Origin: a virus
Lineage: Duplodnaviria; Caudoviricetes
Reading direction: 5' to 3' (one strand)
DNA: 52,924 nucleotides
Virus record (IMG/VR): IMGVR_UViG_3300037515_000482
Span: 1 to 52,924 of that record
The translations under genes and the position numbers were made by a program. Below the pieces are notes generated by a model. It searched no databases and was not told the DNA's origin. It was given only the letters and a program-made list of their open reading frames with translations. Each line of letters begins with the position of its first letter. Position 1 is the stretch's first letter. Positions 24,247 through 47,999 of the stretch are shown here, in pieces.

Positions 24247-26487
24247 CTGGGCAAACGCGATTGGGTCAGCCGGATACTCGGGACCACCGACTTCGCGCCG
24301 AAGACCGGTGAAGCGCTAGCTACCACCACCATCCCCGACGCCCAGAAGAACGGCGCCCCCGCCTACCAGGCCAAGAGCGTCGGCAGCGGCGTCACTTTCG
24401 TTGGCGCGCCGGACTGGCGCAACGTCATCCGGCTCGACGCCCAGGTCGATCCCGACGCCGAGGAACTGACGCGCGGCATCGCGCTCGCCACGTCGGCCTA
24501 CTGCTACACGGCGATCATGTACCGGGCCCAGAAGATCGCCGAGCCGCCGCTCTACGTCGCCGAGGATACCGACGAGGGCGAGCTGTTCCTCACCGACCAC
24601 GAGATCGCGCCGCTGTTCCTCGACCCGAGCGAGGACTTCGACTTCGCCGAGCTACTCTCACTGACCGAGGCGTACCGGCTGATCACGGGCTCGGCGCTCT
24701 GGCTCAAGGCCCGCGACCGGGTCGGCCGCGTCGGCGGGCTCATGCCGTTCTCGGGCGACCAGGTGCGCACCTACGCCGCCGCCGGCCGGATCTACGGCCG
24801 CTTCGAGGTCCTGACCAACGGGTCCTGGCGCCCCTACCCGCCCGAGGACGTGGTCTACTTCCGCGACTTGAACCCCGGCTCATGGCGCACCAACCTGTCG
24901 CGCCTCGACGTCGCGCTCTCGCACCTCGACCTCGGTCACCAGGTCGCGCGCACCGTTCGCAACTTCATGCGCCGGGCCATGTTCCCGGGCGGGGTCGTTT
25001 CTCCGGACAAGGACTGGAACCCTAGCCCCGAGGAATGGGCCGCGTACAAGGCCGCGGTCGCTGCGTGGCACTCTGGTCCCGCGAATGCCGGAAACCCGCT
25101 GGTCGCGATCGGCGGCACGACGTTCTCCCGCGCGGCGTTCCCGCTCAAGGAGCTGCTGCCCACCGAAATCCTCGACCGGACCGAGGCCGTCGTGGGCTCG
25201 GTCTTTGGCGTCGCGCCCATCGTGCTCGGCTGGAAGGTCGGGCTCGAAAACAGCCCGTGGTCGCAGATGCTCCAGGCCCGGCAGAACGTGTACGAGGAGA
25301 CGCTCGTTCCGCGCTGGGGTGAGTACGGCCGCCAGATCAGCCGCCAGATGCTCACGCCCGAAGAGCGAGCGGCCGGCGTGCGCGTGCGTTTCGACCTCAC
25401 GGACCTGGCCGCGCTGAGGGCTGACGACGCGGACCGCTCGACCGTCTCCCAGACGAACCGCGAGATCTGGACCGTCAACGAGCGCCGCGCCTATACCGGC
25501 CAGCAGCCGCTACCGAAGGACGACCCCCGCGGCGACGAGCTGGGCGGCGCGACGCAAGCCGGCGGACTCGGTCTGTTCGGCGCGGCCTCGGAACTCGGCG
25601 CGCTCGCGCTGGCTGGTCATCCGGGCGGCGAAGTGTCGGGTGGGCTGGTGAAGGCGTTCGAGGCTGCGTATGCCCGGGGCGACGAAGGGCCCGCGGGCCT
25701 CGAAGGCAAGGCACTCGAATGGGCGCTCTTCGACACCGGCACCAAGGCTGCCGAGAGCACGTGGACGCGCGCCGCCTACGAGCTGCTGCAGGAGCAGTTG
25801 CGCCAGATATCGGCGCTGGCCGGCAAGCACATCCGAGCGGCGAAAGTCGTTGCGGCCCCGGACGCTGAGGCCAAAGCCGTCGGCGACATCGACCCTGAGT
25901 CGGCGACTGAGTTCATTCGCGCGTTGGCCGAGTGGATCCGCGAGAAGGGCCAACGCCAGCTGTCCAAGGGGCTTTACCCGCTGATCGTCAATACCGGCAC
26001 GGCGGGCGCGAAGCGAGCGGCGGCCCAGGTCGGCCTGAACTTCGGCGTGCTGCAGCCGGGCGTGCTGGCCTACGCCCAGGAGGAAGCCGGTTTCCTGGCG
26101 TCCGTGATGGGCGAGACGACGGGCAAGAAGGTCGCGGCCATCGTGCAGCGGCGCCTGTCCGCCGGCGGACTGCTCAGGGACCTGCGCAAAGACCTGCAGG
26201 AGAGCGCGGCGTTCAGTCGCACGCGCGCCCAGCTCGTGGCCCGTACCGAGACGGCCCGGGCCTGGAACGGCGCGGCGCGCCGGAGCCTCTCTGACTACGA
26301 AAGCTCCAGTGACGAGACGGTGCGCGTCACCAAGGAGTGGCTCACGGCGGGCGACGACCGCGTGAGAGACGAGCACGCAGGGATGGAAGGGGAGCAGCGG
26401 CGCATCGACGAGCCGTTCAGCAACGGGCTCCAAGAGCCGTCGGAACCGAACTGCAGATGTACTTCAGCGTTCAGCCTCGAGCGCTGA
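24247..26487 (+). CDS. Portal protein fused to a MuF-like head morphogenesis domain; start uncertain (CTG 24247 or ATG 24517)
   Basis: HK97-like portal motifs (LITGSALW, DVVYFR, FGVAP, WTVNERR); C-terminal ARTET, KEWLT.GD.RVR.EH, PNCRC. Confidence 0.85.
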   Translation: MGKRDWVSRILGTTDFAPKTGEALATTTIPDAQKNGAPAYQAKSVGSGVTFVGAPDWRNVIRLDAQVDPDAEELTRGIALATSAYCYTAIMYRAQKIAEPPLYVAEDTDEGELFLTDHEIAPLFLDPSEDFDFAELLSLTEAYRLITGSALWLKARDRVGRVGGLMPFSGDQVRTYAAAGRIYGRFEVLTNGSWRPYPPEDVVYFRDLNPGSWRTNLSRLDVALSHLDLGHQVARTVRNFMRRAMFPGGVVSPDKDWNPSPEEWAAYKAAVAAWHSGPANAGNPLVAIGGTTFSRAAFPLKELLPTEILDRTEAVVGSVFGVAPIVLGWKVGLENSPWSQMLQARQNVYEETLVPRWGEYGRQISRQMLTPEERAAGVRVRFDLTDLAALRADDADRSTVSQTNREIWTVNERRAYTGQQPLPKDDPRGDELGGATQAGGLGLFGAASELGALALAGHPGGEVSGGLVKAFEAAYARGDEGPAGLEGKALEWALFDTGTKAAESTWTRAAYELLQEQLRQISALAGKHIRAAKVVAAPDAEAKAVGDIDPESATEFIRALAEWIREKGQRQLSKGLYPLIVNTGTAGAKRAAAQVGLNFGVLQPGVLAYAQEEAGFLASVMGETTGKKVAAIVQRRLSAGGLLRDLRKDLQESAAFSRTRAQLVARTETARAWNGAARRSLSDYESSSDETVRVTKEWLTAGDDRVRDEHAGMEGEQRRIDEPFSNGLQEPSEPNCRCTSAFSLER

Positions 26488-28116: not shown

Positions 28117-29490
28117 ATGAAAGACGCGATGAAGGCCAAGCGCGAGGACTTGAAGAAGCTCCTCGGCGAGCTGAAGACCGTGCAGGACCGCATGGGCGCG
28201 GGCGAGACCCTGACCCAGCCCGAGGCCGAGGCGGCCGACACGAAGGCCGTGGAGGCCGAGGCGCTGCAGACGGAGATCAAGACCTACGATGACCGCATGC
28301 GGCGCTTCTCCGGGCTGCAAGACGAGGGCTCGAAGATCTCCGACCCGGTGCTGCCGCCCGACGACAGCCTGGAGGACGGGCCCGAGACCAAGGCGGATCG
28401 CCGATCGCTGATCCAGCAGAAGGCGGCCGACGGCAAGCCGGTCGCGGCGTACATGCGCCTCGGCCACTACGTCGCGACGCAGAAGGCGCTGGCCGGGTTC
28501 GTGGCCCAGGGCATGCCGAAGGCTCAGGTCGTGCTGGCCTCGGTGCCCAGCCTGATCGCGCGCAAGGGCGAGCCGCTGGTGCCCGTCTCGCGCGAGATGC
28601 TCCAGGCAGCCTACGAGGCGAAGGCCGTGCCCACGCTCGGCACCGGCGTGATCGAGCCGGCGCGTGTGCCCGAGCTGGTGCGCGTCACCGAGCACGACCG
28701 GCTGCAGCTCCGGGACGTGCTCGACGTCCAGCCGACGAACTCCGACGCCGTGAAGTACACACGGCTTGTGAGCTACACGCGGGGCGCGGCTCCGGTCGCG
28801 AACTCGGCCGCGAAGCCCCAGGCCTCGATGGCCATGGACGCCGTGACCGAGCCGGTGCGCACCATCGCCGTGTGGATGCCGGTCGAGAATCAGCAGCTGT
28901 CGGACTACCCGGCGCTCGCAGGGCTCATCAACGGCGAGCTGCTCTACGACGTCGACAAGCACGTCGAGGAACTCGTGGTCTACGGCGACGGGACCGGCGA
29001 GAACTTCAACGGCATCGTCGCCGACCCGGCGGTGCTCGACTGCCGGACCGAGGTCGGTGACACGCTGATCGACATCGCGCGCCGGGGCGTGACCGACGTG
29101 CGGCGCGCGGGCTTCGAGCCGAACGCGATCCTGGTCGACCCGCTCGACTGGGAGGACATCGTGCTCGAAAAGGGTTCGGACAACCGCTACGTGTGGGTCG
29201 TCGTGACCGACGGCGCGACGCAGCGGCTCTGGGCCGTGCCCGTCATCGAGACGGTGGCCATGCAGGACTTCGCAGGGGTCGCGACCGAGGAGCGCAACCT
29301 GCTCGTCGGCGACTTCCGCCGCGGCGCCACGCTGTGGGACAAGGAGTCCGCGCAGATCTCGGTGGGCTGGATCAACGACCAGTTCGTCAAGAACCAGCGC
29401 ACCATCCTGGCTGAGATGCGCGCCGCGTTCGGCGTGAAGCGGCCGGGCGCGTTCCGGAAGCACCAGACGCAGGCGCCCAGCTCGAGCTGA
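28117..29490 (+). CDS. HK97-fold major capsid protein
   Basis: Coiled-coil delta domain; TIAVW, GDGTG, RLWAVPV, LLVGDF, FVKNQRTILAEMR. Confidence 0.93.
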   Translation: MKDAMKAKREDLKKLLGELKTVQDRMGAGETLTQPEAEAADTKAVEAEALQTEIKTYDDRMRRFSGLQDEGSKISDPVLPPDDSLEDGPETKADRRSLIQQKAADGKPVAAYMRLGHYVATQKALAGFVAQGMPKAQVVLASVPSLIARKGEPLVPVSREMLQAAYEAKAVPTLGTGVIEPARVPELVRVTEHDRLQLRDVLDVQPTNSDAVKYTRLVSYTRGAAPVANSAAKPQASMAMDAVTEPVRTIAVWMPVENQQLSDYPALAGLINGELLYDVDKHVEELVVYGDGTGENFNGIVADPAVLDCRTEVGDTLIDIARRGVTDVRRAGFEPNAILVDPLDWEDIVLEKGSDNRYVWVVVTDGATQRLWAVPVIETVAMQDFAGVATEERNLLVGDFRRGATLWDKESAQISVGWINDQFVKNQRTILAEMRAAFGVKRPGAFRKHQTQAPSSS

Positions 29491-29580: not shown

Positions 29581-30480
29581 ATGGCAGCCACGCGCAAAGT
29601 GACGGGTACGGTCCGCAAGCCGTCCGGCGAGCCGCATAGCGGCGTGCGCGTATCGTTCACGCTCGTTCCCGGCAGTTACACCCCCGACGATCAGTTCCCG
29701 CAGGGCAAGGTCTCGGTCACAACCGAGGCGGACGGCACGTTCGAGGCCACGCTCTGGACCAACGAAGTCGGTGAGATCGCGAGCGTCTACGTCTGCAAGC
29801 TGCCCTTCGGCGCCAGTTTTCGGTTCACGCTGCCCGCTGGCAGTACTCCGATTGAGCTATCTGTGCTGCGTCAGGCCGGAGTCACGCCGAGCGATCCGCA
29901 GTACGACACGCTCGTAACCTGGACGTTGGCTCAGTGGAAGAACGCGTGGGCCATCGGGACCGCTTATGCTCGTGGCGAGAAGGTGTCGCACGAGGGCTCA
30001 TCCTACATCGCCACAGCAGATACGACGGCGGGCCAAGAGCCCGGTGTCCATGCGTCGTGGGACCCGCTCGCGCTCCAGGGCGATCAAGGCATCCAGGGCA
30101 TCCAGGGCACCCAGGGCATCCAGGGCGAGCAAGGCACGAACGTCTACGACTTGGCGTTCTTCGTGGCGGGCAGCCCGGTTGATGACGAAATCGTAGGCAG
30201 CTTCGTCGCCGTTCGAGCAGTAACGCTCGCTGACGACTTCGCCGGGTCGCTGGCTCAGGCCGGAACAGCAGCTACGGCGGAGACGGTTTTCATCGTCAAC
30301 GTGAACGGCGCTCCGGTGGGCACCGTGACGTTCGCCGCCGCTGGGACGGTGGGCACACTCGTGACGACGGGCGGAGCGGTGGCGCTCGTGGCGGGTGACG
30401 TGCTGTCCCTCGTCGCTCCCGCTGTCGCGGATGCGACGATTGCCGACATCGCGATCACGTTGCTTGGGCTCGCTCCATGA
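29581..30480 (+). CDS. Putative virion decoration/fibre protein with CBM-like and short collagen-like segments
   Basis: W...TAYARGEKVSHEGSSY motif; (G-X-Q)n at about 30080-30135. Confidence 0.6.
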   Translation: MAATRKVTGTVRKPSGEPHSGVRVSFTLVPGSYTPDDQFPQGKVSVTTEADGTFEATLWTNEVGEIASVYVCKLPFGASFRFTLPAGSTPIELSVLRQAGVTPSDPQYDTLVTWTLAQWKNAWAIGTAYARGEKVSHEGSSYIATADTTAGQEPGVHASWDPLALQGDQGIQGIQGTQGIQGEQGTNVYDLAFFVAGSPVDDEIVGSFVAVRAVTLADDFAGSLAQAGTAATAETVFIVNVNGAPVGTVTFAAAGTVGTLVTTGGAVALVAGDVLSLVAPAVADATIADIAITLLGLAP

Positions 30481-31241
30481 GCCCTCTGGTGATGGTGCGC
30501 TCGCGTCGGCGTGGGTTCTCGCCTCTCAGCACGGGCAAGTTGCGCCTGTGGCTGCACGGTGGGGCGCGCACCTGGCAGGATGCGGCTATGACTGTTCCTG
30601 CTGCGCTGGACGGAGACGTAGTAGGTGGATGGGGCGAACGCAGCGGATTTCTCAACAACGTTACTCAGGCCACCACCGCCGCGAAGCCCGTGCTCAGGGT
30701 AGGTGCCCTGAACGGCAAGAACGTTCTGGAGTTCGACGGCACAGACGACCACCTGATCCGCACGAATACCGCTTCGCTGGAAGCCACGGACATGACCGTT
30801 ATGGCGGTGGCGAACGTGGTGGATCGGGTGACAAGTCTGGCGCTGGTGTCCCGGTGGGCAGGTGGGTTCCCCAGGTGGCGGCTGCAATTGCGTGAGAGCA
30901 CGCATCCGGCGAGCCAAGTAGTTCAGATGCTCTACGCGAACGCCAACGCAGCACGGACGGCTCCGGCGCTCAACACCTGGCACGTCTTCACGGGCGAGTA
31001 CAAGAGCGACGTGGGAGAAGTTCAGGTTCGACTCGACGATTCGACAGCCGTAGTCACTGCTGTGGCCGCAGGCGCTGTGAATCAGCGTGCGCTGTACGTG
31101 GGCGCCACCTGGGACGGGGCCGGCAATCCCTACTACTACCACAAAGGCTACATCGCGGAAATCTGCTATTTCGTCCCTTCGCTGACAGACGCTGAGCGCC
31201 TGCAAATGCTGGATTACTTCACGGCAGGATGGGGGCTCTGA
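30477..31241 (+). CDS. LamG/concanavalin-like virion protein
   Basis: LRLWL, FDGTDDHL, GYIAEI...LTDAE pattern. Confidence 0.7.
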   Translation: MSPLVMVRSRRRGFSPLSTGKLRLWLHGGARTWQDAAMTVPAALDGDVVGGWGERSGFLNNVTQATTAAKPVLRVGALNGKNVLEFDGTDDHLIRTNTASLEATDMTVMAVANVVDRVTSLALVSRWAGGFPRWRLQLRESTHPASQVVQMLYANANAARTAPALNTWHVFTGEYKSDVGEVQVRLDDSTAVVTAVAAGAVNQRALYVGATWDGAGNPYYYHKGYIAEICYFVPSLTDAERLQMLDYFTAGWGL

Positions 31242-31570
31242 TGGCGACCCGGACAGCCTACGCGCACCGACACTTCATCATCGTCGCAGTTGCGAAAGCG
31301 ACGGAGGCTGCTCGGGACGCGAAGGCGTGGGACCCAGACACGGGAGGAGATAGGACGTTCACCCACGTTCGTCTTTCAGCAACGGGTGCGGAGCCAGCTA
31401 CGCATTACGGGGCCGACACGGCAAGCACCGCTGCAATGCGTACCGGGGTATTGGCATCGCGGGACGGCAGTGTGATCTACGCGCTGTACCGGGAAGCGGA
31501 CGGCTGGACGTGGGAGAAGGCGTTGAGGGCAAGTGGGCTGAAGCTGATTGTAAAGGACCAGGAGAGATAA
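31241..31570 (+). CDS. Hypothetical protein
   Basis: TGATG coupling. Confidence 0.6.
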   Translation: MATRTAYAHRHFIIVAVAKATEAARDAKAWDPDTGGDRTFTHVRLSATGAEPATHYGADTASTAAMRTGVLASRDGSVIYALYREADGWTWEKALRASGLKLIVKDQER

Positions 31571-31571
31571 T

Positions 31572-32504
31572 GTGACCTACCAGGACCAGATCGCATCGGA
31601 CGGCAGCATCATCACGGCGGGCTACCGTGAGTGCGCGGAGCGATACCGGCAGATCGCCGCCGCGCTCACGACGCTCAGGCGTCCGTTCACGGTGCTCGAC
31701 CTGGGTGCGGCGTCCGGCTATTTCAGCCTGCGACTCACCGAGGACTTCGGCGCGCGCTGCGTCGCGGTTGACCGAAGCCGCGACGTCATGGCCGCCGAGG
31801 GGCGTGTCGCGGCTGTCGTGCATGGTGACCTCACTTCCGAGCAGATCCGGCGCCAGGGCACGTTCGACGTGATCCTCGCGCTGTCGTTCTTGCACCACCA
31901 GAACAATTGGCGCGCGGTGCTCGACGTGCTGGTGCGTTCGACTCGCTCCGCGCTGATCGTCGAAACGCCGAACCCGCGCGAGCGCCTGAAGCAAGCCGTG
32001 GCGCGCCACGAGCTGAGCGCGATCGAGGCCGCGCTGGCAAAAGCGGGGATGGTCCGCATCGGTACGAGCCCGAGCGTGTGGGACCCGTCGCTCCAGCGTG
32101 GGCTCTGGCTGCTCAGGCGTGAGGGCATCCGTGTTCAGGGCCACGTGTTCAGCGGGGGCGGAAATAATGGGACGTGGGTGCCACGCATGCGCTCCGAGTT
32201 GGGCGTGGTGCTCGGTTACGAGCCCTACGGTGGAAGCCTCAACGTCCGTTTGCCGCGCGCCTTCCGGCTCGGCGCCTATGCGATGGAGTACGTCGACGGG
32301 CAGAGAAGGCGCGGAGGACGCAAGGGCGGCGATTACCAGATCTGGCACGCGCGCGTCGAGGGTTACGACGGCCCGGCCCATGTGATGCGGCCCGGCGTCC
32401 GAGGCCATGGTCGCGACGTCCTGGAGGTCTGGGCGCCGGTGAAGCTTCGGGACACGCTGTCGCTCAGTGATGGCGATCCCATCATCTTGAGGGTCGGCGC
32501 ATGA
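31572..32504 (+). CDS. WbdD-like SAM methyltransferase fused to a CTP-dependent riboflavin-kinase-like (DUF120) domain
   Basis: YQ...RECAERY..I...RPFTVLDLGAASGYFSL...FDVILALSFLHH; then G.VFSG.G...LGYEPYGGSLNV...H...LEVWAPVKLRD.LSLSDGD. Confidence 0.75.
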   Translation: MTYQDQIASDGSIITAGYRECAERYRQIAAALTTLRRPFTVLDLGAASGYFSLRLTEDFGARCVAVDRSRDVMAAEGRVAAVVHGDLTSEQIRRQGTFDVILALSFLHHQNNWRAVLDVLVRSTRSALIVETPNPRERLKQAVARHELSAIEAALAKAGMVRIGTSPSVWDPSLQRGLWLLRREGIRVQGHVFSGGGNNGTWVPRMRSELGVVLGYEPYGGSLNVRLPRAFRLGAYAMEYVDGQRRRGGRKGGDYQIWHARVEGYDGPAHVMRPGVRGHGRDVLEVWAPVKLRDTLSLSDGDPIILRVGA

Positions 32505-33601
32505 CCGCGTTCGCGGCCGCCCCGTACTGGGATCGGCGCTACGCCACGGGCGGCACGTCCGGCGCGGGCTCGCGTGGGGCCGAGGCAGAGGAAAAGGTCC
32601 GGCTCGTGCAGCGCGTGATCGACGAGCATGGCGTGCGCTCCGTGCTCGATCTCGGGTGCGGCGATGGCTACGTGGCCTCCCGCCTCAGGGTCGCGGAATA
32701 CGTCGGCTACGACCCCGCGCCCTCGGCGCTCGCGCTCTGCCGTGCGGCCATGCCGGGCCGGGCGTTCGTGGGTGAGTTGCCCGCTGGCCCGTTCGACCTC
32801 GTGCTTTCGCTCGACGTGATGTTCCATCTCGTCGATGATGCCGACTACCGGGAGCATATCTTCTGGCTGCTCTCGCTGGGCTCGTGCGCGCTGGTGTGGT
32901 CGACCGACCACGCGGAGCGCGGGGCGAAGCACGTGCTGCACCGGAAATGGACGGCCGACGTCCCACCGGGCTGGGCCGTGACGCGGATCCCCACGGAGCA
33001 CAAGAGCGCCTATCTTCTCACGCGGAAGACGCCCGGCCGGGCCGAAGACGTGGAGGGGCTGATCCCGGCTTCGACCGGTCAGCTGCTTGAGAAGCTGGCG
33101 CGCAAGGTACCCGAGGGACAGCGCGTCGTGGAGATCGGCGCGTATACCGGCCGGAGCACGGCCTTCCTGGCGAGGGGATCCGCGGCGGGGCGCTGCGGCC
33201 TGCCGGTGCTCTCGATCGACCCGCACGGGATGGCTGGCGCCGAGATGGGACGCGGGGGCCGCTTCGCTGGCGAGCACGTGCGCGCGACATACCTCCGCAA
33301 CCTGGCCGACGTGGGCGCGCTGCCTCACGTCGAGGCGGTGCGAGCGCTGTCGTCGCGCGCGTCGCTGCCGCGGGAGCCGATCGGTCTGCTCTGGATCGAC
33401 GGCGACCATAGCCGCGCCGCCGTGGTGGAGGACGTTCGACGCTGGGCGCCGCTCGTGGCCCCGGGCGGGTTCATCGTCTTCGACGACTACGGCACGCATC
33501 ACCCGGGCGTGAACGACGTCGTGCACCGGATGATGAAGGATCCGCAGTGGCAGGACTGGCTCGCATTCCCGAAGCCCCTGGCCTGGGCGAGGCGCGCATG
33601 A
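32501..33601 (+). CDS. Double methyltransferase (class I plus Methyltransf_24-like)
   Basis: YWDRRY..G.TSGAGS...VLDLGCGDG; VVEIGAYTGRST...WIDGDHS...PGG.IVFDDY. Confidence 0.85.
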   Translation: MTAFAAAPYWDRRYATGGTSGAGSRGAEAEEKVRLVQRVIDEHGVRSVLDLGCGDGYVASRLRVAEYVGYDPAPSALALCRAAMPGRAFVGELPAGPFDLVLSLDVMFHLVDDADYREHIFWLLSLGSCALVWSTDHAERGAKHVLHRKWTADVPPGWAVTRIPTEHKSAYLLTRKTPGRAEDVEGLIPASTGQLLEKLARKVPEGQRVVEIGAYTGRSTAFLARGSAAGRCGLPVLSIDPHGMAGAEMGRGGRFAGEHVRATYLRNLADVGALPHVEAVRALSSRASLPREPIGLLWIDGDHSRAAVVEDVRRWAPLVAPGGFIVFDDYGTHHPGVNDVVHRMMKDPQWQDWLAFPKPLAWARRA

Positions 33602-34218
33602 AGATCCCGCGCATCATCCATCGGATATGGATCGAGGGCAGCCCGCCCATGCCGAGCGCTTTTGTGGCCAACGGCGTGCGTTGGGGCGCGCTCAACCCCG
33701 GCTGGACCGTGCGCCACTGGGCCAGGCCGGACTTCCGGATGCGGAACGCGTGCCTGTACCGTAGGGCTCCCGCGAACGACGCGCTGCGCTACCGGTCGGA
33801 CCTGCTCCGGCTGGAGATCCTGGCGCGCGAAGGCGGCGTGTACGTCGACACCGACATGGAGCCGCTTCGCCCGCTCGACGAGCTGCTCACGGGGCATGCG
33901 GCCGTCGCGGCCTACAGCCCGAATCGGTGGAAGGGCGAGCGCGTGTTGTCGAACGCGTTTTTGGCGGCCGTGCCCGGCCATCCGTGGATCCTACGCTGCG
34001 TCGAGAAGATGCCGCTCTCGATCCAGGCCCACCGCGGGCAGTTCCTGGCGATGGTCACGGGCCCCCACCACGTCAACCGCTGCCTGCGTCCCGGTGACGA
34101 CGTGCACCTCCTGGAGCCCGCGACCCTTTACCCGACGACCGCAATCGAACTCGCCGGCGCCTACGCCTTCCACGCCTGGGCGAATCGTGCCCAGCTCAAG
34201 CGGGAGGCGCTCGCGTGA
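33598..34218 (+). CDS. GT32 (OCH1/DXD-type) glycosyltransferase
   Basis: KIPRIIHRIW, SDLLRLEIL..EGGVYVDTD, TGP, HAW. Confidence 0.9.
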   Translation: MKIPRIIHRIWIEGSPPMPSAFVANGVRWGALNPGWTVRHWARPDFRMRNACLYRRAPANDALRYRSDLLRLEILAREGGVYVDTDMEPLRPLDELLTGHAAVAAYSPNRWKGERVLSNAFLAAVPGHPWILRCVEKMPLSIQAHRGQFLAMVTGPHHVNRCLRPGDDVHLLEPATLYPTTAIELAGAYAFHAWANRAQLKREALA

Positions 34219-35957
34219 AGCCCCTCCTCGACCTCGCGGTGGTCACGAGCTGCCACAATTACGGCCGATATCTCGCGGAGTGGACAGGGAGCCTCGTCGC
34301 GCTCACGACGTGGCCCCGGGTCGTCGCGCTCGTGGACAACGGCAGCACCGACGCCACGCCCGCTCAGATGGAGGCCGCGGCCCGGCTGCTCCGAGCCGCC
34401 GGACTCCCCGACGTGCGCACTGAGCGAATGGCCCTTGCCAACTTCGGCGCCGCCCGGAACAGGGCCGTCGAGCTGGGCGCGGGCACCGAGTGGGTGATGC
34501 ACATGGACGCCGACGACACGTTCATGCCGCACTGCCTGGACGAGGTGGCCCGGCTGATGCCGTCGGCCGACGTGATCCCGCTCGGTTACCAGCGCTCGGG
34601 TGACCTGGCCGCCGGGCCCTCGAACCGCACGAGACTCTACCAGCACTCCCGCGGCCAGAGCACGCTGAAAAGCTCCGCCCCTGCGTCCGGCGTGAGCCCG
34701 TTCCGCCGCGCGCTCTGGGAGCACACGCCCTATCGTGACGACATGCCGGGCGGCTGGGACACCGCGCTTTGGATCGGGTTCGCGCATCAGAACGCGCGGT
34801 TCGTCGCGGTGCGCACCCGGCCGTGCTTTTTCTACCGCCAGCACGCGGACTCGATCTTCAACACGCGCCGGGTCAACCGGCGCCGTGGTCGCCGGGTCGG
34901 CGCCAAGCTCCAGAACCTGCGCCGCGGCCGCACGGGCGTGAGCGTGCTGGTGCCGCGCCGGAGCGACGGGGGCGGGCCCCGCGACGTCGCCTGGGCGTGG
35001 CTCCGCGCGCGCTACGAGGCGCTCTACCCGGAGTGGGAGGTCGTCGAGGGCACGGACATCGGAGGCCCATTCTGCAAGGGCGCGGCCGTGGCCGACGCCG
35101 TGGGCCGCAGCCGCGGCAATACGCTGGTGATCGCCGACGCGGACTGCGTAATGAGCGCTGAGGCGCTCAGGGAGGCCGTCGCGCTCGTCGAGATCGGCGA
35201 GGCGCCGTGGGTCGTGCCGCACACGCTCGTGCACCGGCTGGACCGGGCTGCGTCCGAGGCCGTGGTCGCCCTGGGGTCGCGGGCCGATCCGCCCTTCAAA
35301 GGCGCCTACGCCCGCAAGGCCTATGTGGGATTCGCCGGCGGCGGCTTCATCGTCGTCGACGCCTCGGCGTGGGACGCGACGGGCGGGATGCCCATGGCGT
35401 TCGCCGGCTGGGGTGCGGAGGACGAGGCGACCGCAGTGATCCTCGATACCCTCGTCGGCCCGCACGTCCGACTCGAGCACGACCTCTGGCACCTCTGGCA
35501 CCCGCACGCCCGGTCGGATTCCGCCAAGGCGCAGCAGCTTGCGAACCGGGTGCTCTATCGACAGCTCGCGAGCCTCGCGGGCGACCCCGACGCGCTGTTC
35601 GGCGTGCTCGAGCGGCTCGCCCTGGGTGAGGCTCCGGAGCAGGCCGTCGCCTGCGTGGGTGCCGGCGTGCTCATGGTCGCGTTGATGGACTTCCAGCGCG
35701 GCACCGAAGTGATCAAACGGGGCGGTCCATTCCTGGCCACGGAGGACGAGGCACGCCGCCACGAGACCCGGCCGCGCAAGATCGCCGTGCGCGCCGATTC
35801 CCCGCTCGCGCACGTGCGGCGTCAGGACCTCGCGGAGATGGCGGCCGCACGAAACAAGCAGCGCGCGCGCAACGACGCCGCGCGCCAGGGGGCGGAGGAG
35901 CGCGTGGCCGCCCTGCACGATCATGAGGCCCGGCTCGCTGCCGCGGCCGGCGACTAA
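34215..35957 (+). CDS. Tandem GT2-like glycosyltransferase
   Basis: HNYGRYL, VDNGSTD, ARN, MDADD; second domain ADAD, F.GWGAED, HLWHP. Confidence 0.88.
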   Translation: MKPLLDLAVVTSCHNYGRYLAEWTGSLVALTTWPRVVALVDNGSTDATPAQMEAAARLLRAAGLPDVRTERMALANFGAARNRAVELGAGTEWVMHMDADDTFMPHCLDEVARLMPSADVIPLGYQRSGDLAAGPSNRTRLYQHSRGQSTLKSSAPASGVSPFRRALWEHTPYRDDMPGGWDTALWIGFAHQNARFVAVRTRPCFFYRQHADSIFNTRRVNRRRGRRVGAKLQNLRRGRTGVSVLVPRRSDGGGPRDVAWAWLRARYEALYPEWEVVEGTDIGGPFCKGAAVADAVGRSRGNTLVIADADCVMSAEALREAVALVEIGEAPWVVPHTLVHRLDRAASEAVVALGSRADPPFKGAYARKAYVGFAGGGFIVVDASAWDATGGMPMAFAGWGAEDEATAVILDTLVGPHVRLEHDLWHLWHPHARSDSAKAQQLANRVLYRQLASLAGDPDALFGVLERLALGEAPEQAVACVGAGVLMVALMDFQRGTEVIKRGGPFLATEDEARRHETRPRKIAVRADSPLAHVRRQDLAEMAAARNKQRARNDAARQGAEERVAALHDHEARLAAAAGD

Positions 35958-35972
35958 CCGACGGAGGAACCC

Positions 35973-36479
35973 ATGGCCGCAGGACGAGATACCGCACGAT
36001 TCACCCGGCAGATCCGCCGGGAACAGCACGAGCGCAACCGGATCGCGACCCAGGAAGCAGAGGAGCGTCGCACCCAGCTTGAGCGTGAGGCGGGAATGAC
36101 TCCCTCCGATCTGCGCCGCGCCAAGGCGCGGGAACGCCGGACGTCGCTGCTCGTGCGTCGAGGCCATCGGGTGCTCGGCGTGACCGAGGCGATGGACCGC
36201 GCGCGCTACGAAGACAAGATGGACCGGGGCGGCGAGGACAAGGTGGTGGAGCCGGAGTTCGACTTCGAGCCGGAGCCGAAAGAGGAAGAGATCCGCGACG
36301 TCTTCGAGCCCGATGCCACCCTCACCGACTTTGCGTCCTGGCAGGCGCGGAAAAAGGCCGAGGAGTACGGGCTCACCACCGAGATGCTCGCCGACCAGCA
36401 CCGGTCTTCGGTGGCCGGCTTCACCGTCGCCGACATCGAGCGGATCGCGGCTGAGCTGACCGGTGAGGGCACCGCCTGA
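35973..36479 (+). CDS. Protein with C-terminal E3-binding (PSBD)-like motif
   Basis: FASWQARKKAEEYGL...GFTVADI; RBS GGAGG. Confidence 0.6.
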   Translation: MAAGRDTARFTRQIRREQHERNRIATQEAEERRTQLEREAGMTPSDLRRAKARERRTSLLVRRGHRVLGVTEAMDRARYEDKMDRGGEDKVVEPEFDFEPEPKEEEIRDVFEPDATLTDFASWQARKKAEEYGLTTEMLADQHRSSVAGFTVADIERIAAELTGEGTA

Positions 36480-40010: not shown

Positions 40011-41972
40011 ATGGCCAACCCCATTCGCCGTCTCGTCCAGCTGGTCCTCGACAAGACTGCCGCCAAGCGCACCGAGAACGACGCGAAGAAGTCGCTGAAG
40101 GGCGTCGAAGGCAGTCTGGACGGCGTGCGCAAGATGGCCATGCGCGTGGGCGCCGCACTGGCCGCTGCGTTCGGCGTCCGGGCGATCGCCGGCTTTCTGA
40201 AGTCGAGCGTCAAAGCGGCTAGTGAAGCCGAAGGCATCTGGAACCGGCTGGGCCACGCCGTCGAGGGTACGGGCATCCGGTACCAGGCCGTCGAGCAGGA
40301 CATCCGCGCGATGGCCGCCGCGATGCAGGATGCTACGAAGGTCGGCGACGAGGAGTTCGCCGCGACGCTGACCGAGCTGATCACCACGTCGAAGGACTAC
40401 GAGGGCTCGCTCCGGAACATATCGCTCGTGGCCGACCTGGCCGCCGCGAAACAGATCGACCTCCGGAGCGCCGCCCAGCTCGTGGGCCGCGCCATGGTCG
40501 GCCAGACGGGCACGCTCGCGCGCTACGGCATCGTGGTGAAAGAGGGCGAGGACGCGATCGAGGTCATGCGCGCATCGTTCGCGGGCTTCGCGGCCAACGA
40601 GGCGACGACGTTCGAAGGCAAGCTGGTCCAGGTCAACAACGCCTGGGGCGACTTCAAGGAGGCGCTCGGAGATGCGCTGATCGCGGGCGCTGACGGCGAG
40701 ACCATGCTCGACCGGCTCACACGGGCGGTGCAGTCGCTCACCGAAGCGGTGGACGTGTTCGGCCGGGCGTATGCCGGGGTGAGTGAGACCGCGTTCCGCA
40801 ACCAGGGCGCGATCACCCGGATCGTGGCCGGTGCGCAAACGCCCGAGCAGGCGCTGCGCGGACTGGCGACGTATCAGTCGATCACGGCGAAGGAGCTGGA
40901 GGACGCGCAGAAGAAACTGGACGGGATGACCGGGACGTGGGCCACGATCAAGGGCACGCTCAAGAAGGGCGACCTTTTCGCGTGGCAGACCGAGGTGGAA
41001 AGCGCCCAGGAGTCGGTGGAAGGGCTGAGAGTGACGATGGCGCATCTGGACCGGGTCATGGAGGACATTGAAGCGGGACGGCTGAGCGTCGGGACCAAGC
41101 TTCCTCCTGGCCCGGACACCGGTACCGGTACCGGCACGCGCCGCCGCGTGCCCATCGAACAGCTCACGGGGCGCAACGTCACGGAGCGGGGCTTGGCGTT
41201 CCAGATGCCCAAGATGGAGAAGATGGAGGGGACCCCCGAGCTATCCATCTTTACGCAGCAGATGGAGGAGTTGGCCCGTACCCAGGAAGCCGCCCACACA
41301 ATGGCCGAGCTGTTGGGTGGCGACTATGAGAGTCTGGACAGCCAGATCCAGATGCTCACCGGCTCCATGGAAACTCTGGCAGCTCAAGGGTTCGGGCCCA
41401 TGGATGCCCGGATGCAAGGTCTGGCCGAACGGCTCCGAGAAGTCCAGGCTGAAAGCGCCCTCGTGGTGAAGCAACAACGGCTCATGGCGGACGTCGCACA
41501 GACGGCGGGCGATATTCTCGCCGCAGCGATGGGGGCGGGGATCGGCCCGATGGCCGCGTGGAAGGCGAAGCAGAACGCCGTCATGGCGCTGGAACAGGCG
41601 GCCATGGGATTCGTCGCCAGCCTCAATCCCTTCACCGCACCCTTGGCCGCAGGCCATTATGCGGCAGCGGGGCAGTTCGCCGGGATCGCCGCCGCGTGGG
41701 GAACGCTCGCGGGCGTGACCGGTGGCTTCGGCGGCGGCGGCACCGGCGGCTTTTCCGGCACGGGCCGGTCGGGCGCGGGTCTGGCGAGCGAGCGTGCCCA
41801 GCCACCCGGCGCCGAAGTCAGCATCTACCTGGTGGGCGAGGGATTCGACGCCATCAATCCGCGCGTCCAGCGCGTGGTCCATCAGGCCGGGAAGCTCGCT
41901 CAGGAGTCCTACGGCGCCAACGCCCGAGTCAGGACCTTCCGGGGCACCATCCCGCAGGGAGGTAGGCCATGA
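40011..41972 (+). CDS. Tape measure protein
   Basis: Ala-rich helical 653 aa; LARYGI, N.WGD.KE.LG motifs; position. Confidence 0.85.
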   Translation: MANPIRRLVQLVLDKTAAKRTENDAKKSLKGVEGSLDGVRKMAMRVGAALAAAFGVRAIAGFLKSSVKAASEAEGIWNRLGHAVEGTGIRYQAVEQDIRAMAAAMQDATKVGDEEFAATLTELITTSKDYEGSLRNISLVADLAAAKQIDLRSAAQLVGRAMVGQTGTLARYGIVVKEGEDAIEVMRASFAGFAANEATTFEGKLVQVNNAWGDFKEALGDALIAGADGETMLDRLTRAVQSLTEAVDVFGRAYAGVSETAFRNQGAITRIVAGAQTPEQALRGLATYQSITAKELEDAQKKLDGMTGTWATIKGTLKKGDLFAWQTEVESAQESVEGLRVTMAHLDRVMEDIEAGRLSVGTKLPPGPDTGTGTGTRRRVPIEQLTGRNVTERGLAFQMPKMEKMEGTPELSIFTQQMEELARTQEAAHTMAELLGGDYESLDSQIQMLTGSMETLAAQGFGPMDARMQGLAERLREVQAESALVVKQQRLMADVAQTAGDILAAAMGAGIGPMAAWKAKQNAVMALEQAAMGFVASLNPFTAPLAAGHYAAAGQFAGIAAAWGTLAGVTGGFGGGGTGGFSGTGRSGAGLASERAQPPGAEVSIYLVGEGFDAINPRVQRVVHQAGKLAQESYGANARVRTFRGTIPQGGRP

Positions 41973-42406
41973 CCATTGACACCTCCTTCCTCGGGCTACG
42001 CAGTCGCTTCGTGTACGGGGAGACCGATTGGGAGACGTCGCTGCCGGTGCGGGCGTGGGACAGATCAACCCCGACAGTCGGCGGGTCGCGCACGTCCGCT
42101 GCCGGGGTTCCGGCCTCCTACATCGTGCGGCGGGATCACGTGTTGCGTGTCACGCTCCGGTTCTACGAGACGGAATGGGAGAACGTTCATGCCATGCTCG
42201 CCTGGGGACAGTTGGCGGAAACGCTGCTCTGGTACCCGGACGCCAACGTGGCGGGCACCTCCTTCGAGGTGTATCTGGACAGCCCGCTCGCCGGTGAAGA
42301 CATCGCACCGAGTCGGTCATCGGACTATCCGCGGACGTTGGAAATCACCGTCTCGCTTCGCACCGTTGACGGCTCACCCTGGGGGCTGAATTACTATGGC
42401 CTATGA
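41969..42406 (+). CDS. Distal tail protein (putative)
   Basis: Position after the tape measure. Confidence 0.55.
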   Translation: MTIDTSFLGLRSRFVYGETDWETSLPVRAWDRSTPTVGGSRTSAAGVPASYIVRRDHVLRVTLRFYETEWENVHAMLAWGQLAETLLWYPDANVAGTSFEVYLDSPLAGEDIAPSRSSDYPRTLEITVSLRTVDGSPWGLNYYGL

Positions 42407-45400
42407 GCGCGAGGCGGACTTCGCCACGGGTCAGGTACGCGGCGTGTCGTTCGAGTTGCGCCCGGACGCCGTGGTGTCTCTGGCCGCGCCCGCGCCCGGA
42501 CCCGCGGCCCTGGGCGACGTGGAGTCCGGGCTGCTCGTCAAGGGGTGGTACGTGCGGCCCGACAACGACACGGGCGTGGTCTATCTGGGCGAGTCGGATG
42601 GCTCGGCGTGGCTGGCCGAGACGCCGCTCTTCGCGTTCACCGGCGCCGCCGTCGACATGCTTTCGCTCGCCTTCGACCAGGCAGGTTTGCCCGTGGTGGC
42701 GATGGAGCGGGCCGGAGAGGTGTGGGTGCGCTACCACGACGGCGAGTCGTATGTGCTGACGAACCTGGGCACCGGTGCCTCCCCTGCCCTCGTACATCGC
42801 GCGCCCGATACTACCCTCTGGGGAGAGATCGTCCTGTTCTACGAGCGGGCCCTGGACGTGTACTTCCGTATCGGTTCGGAGGACTACGCGACGGAGCGGA
42901 ACACAGCTCACACGCTCGACGCGGATCAGAAGCTTTGGCGCGCAATCCTCGGGCCTGATGATCGGCTCCACCTCATCCTGTCCCGACGCGATGCGGGAGC
43001 GGGGACGTACACACTCCAGCGCGTCTCCAGCGACCCGGGGCCATGCCTGGATGCGACGGGCTACGAGGAACGGATCGATGATGGGGCCGAGACGTTGCTG
43101 GTGTTCCGGGACACCGTTGGGGAGATACGGACCAACTGCCTGATCTCGGTTGACGCCGCGCTGATTGGTGCGGCAGGAAACGCGGGAGGCGGCGCCGGTA
43201 GGGGACAGGACACAAAGCTGTTCGTGAGCCTTGGTGGGTTGGGCTTGGACCCCGATACCGATACGCCACCCGATGAACACATCGCGTTGGGCGGAGGCCA
43301 CGGTGCCATCATCGACCAGGACGGCCAGCCTGGCGGATCGGGAGGCGCTGGAGGCGGCAAGAGCCCATCAGGGAATACGATGTGGTCGGCTGGGGGGCTA
43401 GGCTCGGCGCCTCAAGGGCACGACGGAGGAGGCGCGCAAAGCACCTGGGGGCTGCTGGACAAGAAGCTCGCAGCCTCGGGTGGCGGCGGCGGGTTCGCCG
43501 GAGCAGGGACCGGAGGAGTGTGTTTGCAGGGTTGGCCCCTGAAAGCTGGCCGGGGTGGCCCTGGAGGGTTGGTGCCGGGATGGCGGTTCTATGGCCCACG
43601 CGGCGGGCATGGATACGCTCAGCAGGTCAACGCTCCTACGACTGAAACGGTGGACGTGCACGGGGGCGGGGCGGCGGGGGGAGTCCGCGTCATCACAGCC
43701 CTGGTCATCCCCGCCGGGCAGACCATCGCCATACAAGTTGGTCAGGGAATCGCCGGGGGTGGAGCGGGCCAGGGAGGGGATGCGATCGGCGGATCTGGGC
43801 GGACGGGAGCCGTGGTGATCCGGATCACTCGCCTGTACCTCGATGACCTGCCTCCGGCGGTGCTGTCGGGCGGAGTCGAGAGCGTCTACGACGGGTACCG
43901 TTACCATCGCTTCACCGCCACCGACGTTGTGACTGTCACCACGCCGGGACGCGCGACGATCAAGGGATGTGGGGGTGGGGCAGGTGGCGGCTCAGGACGT
44001 GGTGGGGGTGGGGGCGGCGCGGACGTCAGGGAGGTGGAGACGTACCTGTACCAGGACGAAACGGTCACGGTGGGGGATGGTGGGGCGGGCGGGACGGCGG
44101 GCTCCGCTGGTGAGGATGGCGAGGATTCGAGCGTGGGCGATCATGTCCTCATGAAGGGCGGGGGCGCCGGCGCCGGAGCCCCACCTAGCGCCGCAGGATC
44201 GCGGGCGACGGGCGGCGGCGGGCACGGGGACGGTGGTGTACCTGGGGCAGGTTCAGCGCTGCGTGGATACCAGGGGGGCGACGGCGGCGGGTTCTCGCTG
44301 TCTGCTGGAGGCGACGCCGAACACGCGGGCGGCGGCGGGGGCGCCGGGGAGAGTGGCGATAGGGGGGCCACCCTGGAAACGATGGGCGACGAGCTGGCGG
44401 AGAATTGGGAGGTGCCGAGCACGGGCACCCTGATGATCCCGGAGCAACAGTTCAAGCTCACCGAAACAGGAGGCAGCTTTCACGCTCTGATCGAGACGGA
44501 CGTCGCAGTAGACAAGATGTTCGTGCAGGCGTTGGTCAAGAGCGCCCACTCGAATCTGAACGTTGGGCCGATCACTCGCGCGACTCACCCGACCGGGGAC
44601 CCCGACGAGGTGCCCGTGGGCTACCACGGCGCGATCCATTACGGCACCCAGAGGTTCGTCGGCATCGCGTATCTGCACGACCTCGCTTCCTGGCATCACA
44701 TCCAGGCCTACGTACAGGACGGTCTCTCGCAGTATGCCGCTTATGGCGAGAGTGGGAGCCCTCGCACAATGCAGGTCGGGGTGCGGAAGGCGTATGCCGA
44801 CACGGCGCTTGATGGTACCTTTGCCAGCTTCGGCTTTGCTGCGCGGGGCACTCCCATCAGCGGGACCAACAAGCAAGCATTCTGCGATCATCTCGCATAC
44901 TTCCGTGACAAGAATCTCCTCGTGGAGGGTGTGCCCACGGGCGGAAGCGTCGAGGTGCTCAACGAGGCTGGTGACGTCGTGGCGTCGGGAGCCGAGGCGG
45001 CGGGCATCGCGCTCGTGGATCTGTCCATGTTCGGTACGGGGGTAAGCGGAGTCGAAGAGCCGATGCCCATGCCCGAGGGCTTCCACACCATCAGGGTCCT
45101 GGACTCCGGCAGTGCCGTCGTCGCGGAGCGTTCGTCCGGTGGTGTGTATCCTGGCGGGGAGTACGACGTGGTGGCCGGCGAGCTTGTGGTCCGCATCGAT
45201 GAGACCGGGCCGGAGCCGGTGCCCATCACGGGGTTGATGTTCTTCACTGACTTCTCCGAGCTGACGCCCGGCCCACTACACGGTGATGGCGGGGACGGCA
45301 TCGCGATTGATGATGCCGGGTGGCTCGATGCTGGGATGGGTGACGCTGAGGGGTACTTGGGCGGTGGAGGCGGAGGTGGCGCTGAACAGTCCATCGCCGG

Positions 45401-45563
45401 CGCAGGCGGGAAAGGTGGTGGCGGAGCTGGCTCTATCGGTGCCGCAGCACCCACAGCGGGTGCGCCCAATACCGGCGGCGGCGGCGGCGGAAGCGGGGAC
45501 GCGGCGACCCCGGGAGCCGCTGGTGGGTCTGGTGACATCGTGATCCGCACACTCATACCGTGA
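42396..45563 (+). CDS. Large glycine-rich tail/fibre protein
   Basis: Several GGGGG blocks; GGSG.VVIR-type endings; YRYHRFT. Confidence 0.7.
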   Translation: MAYEREADFATGQVRGVSFELRPDAVVSLAAPAPGPAALGDVESGLLVKGWYVRPDNDTGVVYLGESDGSAWLAETPLFAFTGAAVDMLSLAFDQAGLPVVAMERAGEVWVRYHDGESYVLTNLGTGASPALVHRAPDTTLWGEIVLFYERALDVYFRIGSEDYATERNTAHTLDADQKLWRAILGPDDRLHLILSRRDAGAGTYTLQRVSSDPGPCLDATGYEERIDDGAETLLVFRDTVGEIRTNCLISVDAALIGAAGNAGGGAGRGQDTKLFVSLGGLGLDPDTDTPPDEHIALGGGHGAIIDQDGQPGGSGGAGGGKSPSGNTMWSAGGLGSAPQGHDGGGAQSTWGLLDKKLAASGGGGGFAGAGTGGVCLQGWPLKAGRGGPGGLVPGWRFYGPRGGHGYAQQVNAPTTETVDVHGGGAAGGVRVITALVIPAGQTIAIQVGQGIAGGGAGQGGDAIGGSGRTGAVVIRITRLYLDDLPPAVLSGGVESVYDGYRYHRFTATDVVTVTTPGRATIKGCGGGAGGGSGRGGGGGGADVREVETYLYQDETVTVGDGGAGGTAGSAGEDGEDSSVGDHVLMKGGGAGAGAPPSAAGSRATGGGGHGDGGVPGAGSALRGYQGGDGGGFSLSAGGDAEHAGGGGGAGESGDRGATLETMGDELAENWEVPSTGTLMIPEQQFKLTETGGSFHALIETDVAVDKMFVQALVKSAHSNLNVGPITRATHPTGDPDEVPVGYHGAIHYGTQRFVGIAYLHDLASWHHIQAYVQDGLSQYAAYGESGSPRTMQVGVRKAYADTALDGTFASFGFAARGTPISGTNKQAFCDHLAYFRDKNLLVEGVPTGGSVEVLNEAGDVVASGAEAAGIALVDLSMFGTGVSGVEEPMPMPEGFHTIRVLDSGSAVVAERSSGGVYPGGEYDVVAGELVVRIDETGPEPVPITGLMFFTDFSELTPGPLHGDGGDGIAIDDAGWLDAGMGDAEGYLGGGGGGGAEQSIAGAGGKGGGGAGSIGAAAPTAGAPNTGGGGGGSGDAATPGAAGGSGDIVIRTLIP

Positions 45564-47774: not shown

Positions 47775-47808
47775 CCATGCCCATGCCACCATCAGGAGAC
47801 GCTGAAAC

Positions 47809-47973: not shown

Positions 47974-47999
47974 GCTTCCACAATCCAAGGAGGTGACCC

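Follow-up and report, generated by a model that had tools for sequence, protein, structure and literature searches.

What is a domain with the fold of an archaeal riboflavin kinase doing behind a methyltransferase in the genome of a bacterial virus? This question is raised by a single gene in the virus record IMGVR_UViG_3300037515_000482, an IMG/VR-type record of 52,924 bp which was analyzed over its whole length and which we refer to as the window. In this gene, a methyltransferase resembling that of WbdD, the kinase/methyltransferase of E. coli O9a which caps the polymannose O-antigen with methyl-phosphate (PDB 4AZS, 4AZW, 4UW0), is fused to a domain of the cytidine triphosphate (CTP)-dependent riboflavin kinase (RibK) type. 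Based on the evidence below, we propose that the fusion may serve as a WbdD-like kinase/methyltransferase which caps a phage-made glycan and in which the kinase fold has been swapped, a reading to which, with all its mechanistic steps, we give slightly better than an even chance. The open reading frame (ORF) and its two domains lie as follows, with the S-adenosylmethionine (SAM) motif given for the first domain.

31572-32504, + strand: fusion ORF of 310 amino acids (aa), WbdD-type methyltransferase followed by a RibK-fold domain
31572-32126, + strand: methyltransferase domain, residues 1-185, with the SAM motif VLDLGAASGYF
32145-32495, + strand: RibK-fold domain (PF01982, CTP-dep_RFKase/DUF120), residues 192-308

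The ORF starts with GTG two bases past the stop codon of the preceding ORF, and its G+C content at third codon positions (GC3) is 0.84. This value, the conserved homologues and the confidently predicted fold together rule out a chance ORF in GC-rich DNA, and an assembly chimera is ruled out by the recurrence of the fusion across many independent contigs: both the methyltransferase family and PF01982 were assigned (precomputed Pfam column) to 35 of 44 homologues, ranging from 91% to 39% identity. Several class I methyltransferase models of Pfam matched residues 26-141, and PF01982 matched over its full length (model positions 1-121 of 121) with an E value of 6.7e-15 and 55.6 bits against a cut-off of 25, reaching 58 bits in a six-frame search. 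A sequence search of the PDB found the MJ0056 riboflavin kinase at E 4e-9 over residues 188-306. The AF2 model of the fusion, built with 28 family members, had a mean pLDDT of 90.6 and a pTM of 0.90. When this model was compared with known structures by Foldseek, the N-terminal half matched numerous class I methyltransferases, AtmM and EvdMO1, both sugar O-methyltransferases, among them, and the C-terminal half matched RbkR (5trd, E 1e-9) and MJ0056 (2oyn, 2vbu and 2vbv, the last with CDP and FMN), all at E 1e-9 to 2e-8, with TM scores to the MJ0056 entries, normalized to the target, of 0.71-0.79.

The relationship of the N-terminal half to WbdD emerged from sequence searches of the PDB. With the single sequence, WbdD chains were the best methyltransferase match (E 5e-4). 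When a family profile (A1) made from a 28-member alignment was searched against all PDB sequences, four WbdD sequences came out on top at E 6.9e-14 to 1.4e-13 and about 54 bits (best 54.9), covering profile positions 18-139; they were followed by RibK proteins at E 7.5e-12 to 3.8e-11, and the next methyltransferase, AtmM, appeared at 8.3e-5 with 25 bits. In the alignment to 4uw0_A (native numbering), R19, C21 and R24 of the fusion correspond to R31, C33 and R36 of WbdD, D67 to D82, and H108/H109 to H132/H133. Throughout the methyltransferase family R19, C21, R24, H108, H109 and R176 are invariant. Judged by these profiles and residues, the methyltransferase of the fusion is specifically WbdD-like. 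The original prediction, made before any database search, had pointed out this likeness to WbdD and had assigned the C-terminal half to the RibK type, and both assignments were borne out; the motifs it quoted are all present in the translation, namely YQD, RECAERY, RPFTVLDLGAASGYFSL, GTFD and LSFLHH in the N-terminal half and GHVFSGGG, LGYEPYGGSLNV and HGRDVLEVWAPVKLRDTLSLSDGD in the C-terminal half.

The conserved residues also carry functional meaning. In the available text of the WbdD study, R36 and D82 are described as binding SAM, and the H132A, H133A, R203A and Y16F variants as retaining kinase activity and losing methyltransferase activity; R203, H132 and H133 are said there to be without counterparts in the O8 enzyme and in other sugar methyltransferases and are proposed to permit a phosphate to act as the nucleophile (PMC3482155). 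The reaction of WbdD was followed there by 1H,31P-HMBC NMR, in which the signal of the sugar phosphate lay near 4 ppm and moved to about 1 ppm once it was methylated. The two histidines are thus tied to the methylation of a phosphate, and a phosphate-methylating enzyme in turn needs a kinase. R176 and Y3, the latter nearly invariant, fall outside the aligned stretch; from their spacing they are probably the equivalents of WbdD R203 and Y16, as H109 and R176 are 67 residues apart (70 in WbdD) and Y3 and R24 are 21 apart (20 in WbdD).

Could the second half of the fusion supply such a kinase? To our knowledge, the only roles so far known for the RibK cradle-loop barrel are those of a riboflavin kinase and of a regulator, both in archaea. 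Studies of these proteins describe, in the text available, a GxGEG phosphate loop, a GTLN motif, an LRxxxL motif around the cytosine whose loop binds CTP or cytidine diphosphate (CDP) through backbone contacts, a PxxTxx motif lying over riboflavin, a Glu contacting metal and substrate (E104 in the Mmp enzyme, E195 in taRbkR), and contacts of taRbkR Tyr115, Phe165, Pro185 and Tyr190 with flavin mononucleotide (FMN) (10.1101/2021.04.15.440061; PMC5397151). The domain in the window has the loop SGGGNNG, a GSLN motif, the catalytic-type E285 within LEVWAP, the LR pair at 292-293 and a basic loop, QRRRGGRKGGD.

These features were compared in a set of 190 proteins, in 177 of which a PF01982 domain extends over 90 or more model positions: 55 fused, 118 canonical and 4 close stand-alone forms that were set apart. 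N224 is present in 100% of both fused and canonical proteins and E285 in 100% of the fused vs. 99% of the canonical ones; GSLN stands in place of GTLN, and L292 and R293 occur in 94% and 80% of the 55 fused members. Also common to both groups are G190, G195, G197, G221, S/T222, L223, P274, A288, P289, D300 and G301. On the acceptor side the two groups differ. The F/Y of column 252 (67% of canonical proteins) has become Gly in 69% of the fused ones, the Thr of PxxT (44% of canonical) is Arg in 87% of the fused, and a canonical Ala is replaced by His270 in 98%; Tyr255, Gln256 and Trp258 are near-invariant in the fused members, which also have a basic Gly/Arg loop at about residues 244-254 of the window protein. 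In columns mapped by alignment offsets, the position of taRbkR Tyr115 is M in the window protein and F in 49% of the fused members, that of Tyr190 is His in 81%, and the Pro is kept. From these columns, the phosphoryl-transfer core looks intact and the acceptor side looks rebuilt.

The domain is also rare. A HMMER search with the C-terminal domain alone against 1.84 billion representative proteins returned 218 proteins at E ≤ 0.001, 17 of them at E ≤ 1e-10. The nearest matches, 300-330 aa long and with the domain at the C-terminal end, were the fusions themselves, and typical archaeal RibK proteins, RbkR (in which a winged helix-turn-helix (wHTH) domain precedes RibK) and a RibB fusion followed behind this clade at E values of around 1e-10 to 1e-4. 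The four stand-alone forms, of about 126-130 aa, bear the same signature as the fused domain. In all fused proteins (55 of the 177 with a RibK domain) the partner was a WbdD-type methyltransferase, and by Pfam three of them extend further: P0035 (529 aa) continues into a GT2 glycosyltransferase, P0058 (518 aa) into an FkbM methyltransferase, and P0061 (768 aa), in which HN replaces HH in the methyltransferase motif, has two RibK domains in tandem and then GT2. By fold and model score, the domain of the window is a divergent member of PF01982 for which a riboflavin kinase function is doubtful.

If the methyltransferase needs a kinase, related loci should tell what usually provides it. A pattern scan of IMG/VR yielded 28 viral loci, which were classified by BLAST with the proteins of the window and of the Cluster J mycobacteriophage Thibault, by a hidden Markov model (HMM) of the gp12-type kinase and by inspection of motifs. 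Five of the 28 (L003-L007) encode the RibK fusion. In eight (L008, L009, L010, L013-L016, L028) a separate gp12-like protein-kinase/APH-like gene with HRDxxxxN and DWE motifs lies immediately upstream of the methyltransferase gene and a GT2 gene downstream, and in 13 (L011, L012, L017-L027) the methyltransferase carries a fused C-terminal extension with the pattern HGDxxPWN...LID. The two remaining, distant loci (L029, L030) encode just the methyltransferase. The gp12-type HMM gave no match in the window, L003 or L005-L007. Around the fusion, a GT32-like gene adjoins in all five fusion loci (L003-L007), the capsid gene lies no more than about 2.5 kb upstream in four (L003-L006), a GT2 gene follows in L004, L005 and L007, and an FkbM-type methyltransferase gene is adjacent in four of the five.

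Cultured phages show the same arrangement with the other type of kinase. A tblastn search found only the methyltransferase half, in 45 Mycobacterium phage records, with no match covering 80% of the query. In Thibault, gp12 ('serine/threonine kinase'), gp13 (methyltransferase) and gp14 (glycosyltransferase) lie between the capsid and adaptor genes, and Pfam matches gp12 to APH (E 2.4e-7), Pkinase and Kdo kinase; Tweety (Cluster F, genus Cheoctovirus) encodes the corresponding kinase gp102, methyltransferase gp103 and glycosyltransferase gp104. Cluster J mycobacteriophages are described as having an insertion of 8-10 genes with glycosyltransferases, a methyltransferase and a kinase, the roles of which are called unknown and which, in the available text, are named without a link to WbdD; the cassette of the window, running from the capsid gene to the head-tail adaptor gene, occupies the same position as this insertion (PMC3706429).

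An assignment of the C-terminal extensions of L017-L027 as gp12-like was ruled out by BLAST and the gp12 HMM. With a profile of the extension (A2), matches at E 0.002-0.1 were obtained to the catalytic loop of CK2, Rio2, BUB1 and bacterial Ser/Thr kinases, and Pfam matched APH in one and RIO1 in two of nine extension members. The AF2 model of the fused form from L018 (pLDDT 88.4, pTM 0.91) had WbdD as its top five PDB matches in Foldseek (E 4.5e-12 to 3.1e-9), the alignments spanning 364-413 columns and both domains. Because of this match over both domains, the fused-extension proteins are, as far as the L018 model represents them, miniature WbdDs. The window protein shares their methyltransferase and carries a RibK-fold module where the miniature WbdDs have their kinase.

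The modules have been exchanged more than once. In a quick maximum-likelihood tree of 53 methyltransferase domains chosen from about 100 available (26 RibK-fused, seven with a separate kinase, nine with a fused kinase, four from Bacillaceae, three from Chlamydiae, three cellular WbdD-like proteins as outgroup, and P0037), the phage-type clade and the cellular WbdD-like proteins were split from each other (99*). Rows with a separate kinase formed a monophyletic group (99*), those with a fused kinase fell into one clade together with the Bacillaceae and Chlamydiae rows (97*), and the RibK-fused rows made up an unresolved basal grade, with P0061 placed inside the fused-kinase clade. The RibK label needed five changes on this tree, at least two of them forced by starred branches, from which the repeated exchange of kinase modules follows.

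Where in the phage does the fusion act? The genes that bear on this question, within and around the cassette, are listed below.

12297-13688: tyrosine-integrase-like gene
16118-17707: large DNA methyltransferase gene
24517-26487: portal/MuF fusion
28117-29490, + strand: HK97-type major capsid protein, C-terminal end ...QTQAPSSS; upstream border of the cassette
29581-30480, + strand: fibre-like protein of 299 aa, right after the capsid gene
32501-33601, + strand: second methyltransferase with two domains, N-terminal Methyltransf_23 and C-terminal Methyltransf_24 (TylF/CmcI-like)
33547/33598-34218, + strand: GT32-like glycosyltransferase, PF04488, with DXD motif
34215-35957, + strand: two-domain glycosyltransferase, N-terminal GT2 and galactosyltransferase-like second half; homologues in L004 and L005
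36790-37326, + strand: head-tail adaptor (phrog_442, E 1.7e-23); downstream border of the cassette
40011-41972: tape-measure protein

Since it encodes an integrase together with portal, capsid, adaptor and tape-measure proteins, the window represents all or much of the genome of a temperate tailed phage; the record is labeled 'linear', with a CheckV completeness of 52. Between the capsid and head-tail adaptor genes lie, in this order, the fibre-like gene, two ORFs which are small or of unknown function, the fusion gene, the genes for the second methyltransferase, the GT32-like enzyme and GT2, and one further ORF. An orthologue of the second methyltransferase comes after the fusion in L003 as well (61% identity), and the GT32-like gene likely starts at the ATG at 33598, which overlaps the preceding stop codon. 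The product of 29581-30480 has a CarboxypepD_reg-like start, a CBM5/12 match at the cut-off, a short GxQ collagen-like run (GDQGIQGIQGTQGIQGEQG) and a tail-fibre-like C-terminus, and may be a capsid decoration or fibre protein. The fusion therefore belongs to the structural operon of a phage rather than to an O-antigen cluster of a bacterium, a point which the original prediction had missed. It had placed the gene next to a GT32 enzyme; a GT32-like gene is indeed there, but one gene further on, after the second methyltransferase. The co-occurrence with glycosyltransferases on which its proposal of a glycan chain terminator depended was found in the five fusion loci and in the GT2-carrying P0035 and P0061, its idea of an unrelated kinase fold in place of the WbdD kinase gains support from the homologous methyltransferases with a protein-kinase-like module at the same place, and its authors' unawareness of any description of such a fusion agrees with our literature searches, which found none in print for a methyltransferase-RibK fusion, some candidates being judged by title and the start of the abstract. 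One preprint, in its accessible part, proposes that an Asgard archaeal virus has a WbdD-like methyltransferase, with neither a kinase nor RibK.

Considering these findings together, we propose the following mechanism. One domain of the fusion would phosphorylate a sugar hydroxyl, presumably with CTP as donor and with the sugar rather than riboflavin as acceptor, and the other would methylate the resulting phosphate with SAM, leaving a methyl-phosphate group. The phosphorylating module would be an active cradle-loop barrel descended from archaeal CTP-dependent riboflavin kinase with a rebuilt acceptor pocket, instead of the protein-kinase fold of WbdD. The fusion would act together with the GT32-like enzyme, the two-domain GT2 and the second O-methyltransferase of the late structural operon, and the glycan would be placed on virion proteins. 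The gene set probably decorates the virus particle with sugars, with virion proteins as the most likely carriers.

Compared with WbdD, the fusion has a homologous methyltransferase, the same order of methyltransferase and kinase module and a similar association with glycosyltransferases. However, its kinase module is a RibK-type cradle-loop barrel of ~120 aa where WbdD has a eukaryotic-like protein-kinase domain; Pfam finds no protein-kinase-like domain (HxDxxxxN, DFG) in the ORF, which ends at residue 310, right after the RibK-like domain, with no C-terminal coiled coil or membrane anchor; and WbdD is encoded in an ABC-transporter O-antigen cluster, not among phage structural genes. Because it has neither the kinase fold nor the coiled coil of WbdD, we class the fusion as a protein working like WbdD and not as a member of the WbdD family. 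With archaeal RibK (MJ0056) and RbkR it shares the fold and PF01982, GSLN for GTLN, the Glu in LE..AP, LRxxxL and the Pro of PxxT, and it departs from them in GxGNN/H, in Gly for the aromatic residue, Arg for Thr, the basic loop and His270/Tyr255/Trp258. Its partner is a methyltransferase, whereas the canonical domain stands alone or joins a wHTH domain, and it occurs in phages of bacteria (a Streptomyces prophage, a Bacilli metagenome-assembled genome (MAG) contig) rather than in archaeal flavin metabolism. Closest in design are Thibault gp12-14, Tweety gp102-104 and the miniature WbdDs such as that of L018, which have an orthologous methyltransferase (33-47% identity), the same cassette position after the capsid gene and glycosyltransferase partners, but a minimal protein-kinase/APH-like kinase, separate or C-terminally fused, in place of the RibK fold. 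The cassette likewise resembles the virion-glycosylation cassettes reported for Che8, Corndog and Myrna in having glycosyltransferases within or beside structural genes; Che8 belongs to the same genus as Tweety.

Several observations weigh against the proposal that the fusion is a kinase-swapped, WbdD-like enzyme acting on the virion. WbdD was absent from the top 50 Foldseek matches of the whole fusion model, where generic class I methyltransferases dominate, so the link of this protein to WbdD derives solely from sequence profiles. Of the GxGEG loop, neither the third Gly nor the Glu is kept, the fused members having SG(S/G)GN(N/H), in which Asn/Ser plus Asn/His replace Glu-Gly. P0037 has a degenerate C-terminal half. 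The riboflavin contacts were mapped by alignment offsets, and the position of taRbkR Phe165 is ambiguous. Bacillaceae methyltransferase homologues retain the HH pair (LSVLHH) inside polysaccharide clusters with cytidylyltransferase, dehydratase/epimerase and pyruvyl transferase genes, and Pfam found no kinase family among the 10 ORFs scanned around them; the HH motif is therefore not always accompanied by a recognizable kinase. L004, which equals contig L032 of a Bacilli MAG and encodes a 43%-identical fusion, also has a gp12-like kinase three genes downstream, so the RibK-like and gp12-like kinases are not strictly interchangeable; the two types may act on different positions. The kinase likeness of the fused extensions is weak at the sequence level and derives mainly from the L018 model, and 22 of the 50 inner branches of the tree were open in the quick search, for which reason it does not give the direction of the exchange. 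Finally, the position of the genes is the sole basis for naming virion proteins as the target.

Part of these observations would suit a different reading, in which the RibK-like domain is catalytically dead and serves as a nucleotide- or glycan-binding or scaffold module for a methyltransferase acting on a sugar hydroxyl or on a phosphate made by another enzyme. The altered phosphate loop, the second kinase in L004, the degenerate P0037 and the Bacillaceae homologues with no recognizable kinase nearby all point that way. Against this, N224 and E285 are found in every one of the 55 fused members and G195, G197, G221, S222, L292 and R293 are kept across 39-91% identity, a conserved catalytic pattern that is more than a binding module would need, and we consider a dead domain unlikely.

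We think it similarly unlikely that the chemistry is as proposed and the target is a host envelope glycan, modified in lysogenic conversion or superinfection exclusion. In favour of this, the phage has an integrase gene, methyltransferase homologues occur in cellular polysaccharide clusters, and WbdD itself works on lipid-linked O-antigen according to the available text (PMC3482155). However, in the window and in L003-L006 the cassette lies within the late structural operon right after the capsid gene, and among the scanned ORFs none was recognized as a flippase, an ABC transporter or a polyprenol-phosphate transferase. Moreover, related mycobacteriophages have precedent for virion glycosylation: capsid and tail-tube subunits of Che8, Corndog and Myrna are reported to be glycosylated (Freeman et al. 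2023, cited in PMC12363180 and PMC13445384, as far as their available text goes).

Alternatively, the cytidine nucleotide might be used for another transfer, of a phospho-alcohol from a CDP-activated donor or of a cytidine monophosphate group, with the methyltransferase acting on that substituent. The LRxxxL loop which binds CTP or CDP is kept, a ligand that is charged or of larger size is suggested by the family-specific basic loop and by the His, Tyr and Arg that have newly become invariant, and a cytidylyltransferase lies beside the Bacillaceae homologue; against this, the available text of the RibK studies offers no precedent for such a transfer by this fold (10.1101/2021.04.15.440061; PMC5397151) and the protein-kinase-like partners of the sister proteins favour plain phosphorylation, making this reading improbable. 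The weakest alternative, a true riboflavin kinase that raises FMN in infection as an auxiliary metabolic gene and is fused to the methyltransferase with no mechanistic meaning, could appeal to the passing of the PF01982 cut-off, to the retained GSLN, catalytic Glu, P274, LR and aromatic at column 258 and to the JGI label 'CTP-dependent riboflavin kinase' of relatives, but is very improbable given the constant WbdD-type partner, the further fusions to GT2 or FkbM methyltransferases, the neighbourhoods examined, in which no flavin genes were seen, acceptor-side columns systematically unlike those of canonical RibKs, and canonical RibK/RbkR matches that rank behind the fused clade.

Further observations concern the capsid proteins, the relatives of the methyltransferase and the window itself. 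The C-terminal ends of the capsid proteins beside the cassettes are short and Ser/Gly/Ala-rich in six of six compared, ending in APSSS (window, 28117-29490), AAGS (L003, 5635-7185), AVGS (L004, 5887-7290), EASS (L005, 5575-6912), PAGS (L006, 5650-6672) and GSGS (L028, 807-2021); the capsid protein of Thibault ends in TAPSF. As a guess, glycans may be attached to these tails. The fusion has only two named carriers, the Bacilli MAG contig and a contig of Streptomyces aidingensis CGMCC 4.5739, a cultivable organism, which has a 41%-identical fusion in an 88-kb IMG/VR viral region (L033, 54879-71796, equal to L006).

Two Halobacillus genomes (L037, 7257-8570; L038, 7254-8570) encode a methyltransferase homologue with an N-terminal extension of ~240 aa next to a cytidylyltransferase in a polysaccharide cluster; an assignment of this extension as ParB/Srx-like, suggested by a GGQHR stretch, was dropped as it had no Pfam match at E 0.001. 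Homologues on Chlamydiae MAG contigs (L036, L041-L047) have apparent N-terminal signal-like hydrophobic stretches, have partly lost the HH pair (LHVLHH in some, FLVVHL in others) and have at the C-terminus a short remnant that looks like the beginning of the mini-kinase extension. A Verrucomicrobiota MAG (L039, 7737-12761) encodes a protein of 1674 aa with the methyltransferase and mini-kinase (HRDVQPWN) at its start, followed by more than 1200 residues of unknown content. In the window, nearly all high-GC3 ORFs lie on the + strand and no tRNA genes were found. Its G+C content is 65-72% across most of its length and falls to 0.596 at 46001-48000 (vs. 0.65-0.72 elsewhere), where the large tail genes 42396-45563 and 45567-47774 come to an end. 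A near-identity DNA search with 31000-36000 against cultured phages gave no match, and the capsid protein had no cultured relative above about 37% identity.

In a wider frame, bacteriophages may have recruited the RibK barrel as a glycan kinase which depends on a nucleotide and replaces the protein-kinase fold of WbdD, a non-homologous displacement within a conserved capping enzyme of two steps that happened several times as phages evolved, such that virions or phage-made glycans carry methyl-phosphate sugars; for this general statement the chances seem to us a little short of even. If true, PF01982 would be a fold with two biochemical functions, the second of them on a carbohydrate acceptor, and a small (310 aa), soluble, possibly CTP-using kinase/phosphate-methyltransferase would be of possible use in glycan derivatization. 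The 'serine/threonine kinase' genes next to methyltransferases in Cluster J and F phages would then encode WbdD-type sugar kinases and not protein kinases. It would also represent a clean natural case of one kinase fold displacing another in the same bifunctional design, and it predicts as yet unreported phosphate or methyl-phosphate on phage-encoded glycans, which would bear on a topic opened by studies of virion glycosylation in mycobacteriophages, the recognition of glycosylated phage particles by antibodies and hosts.

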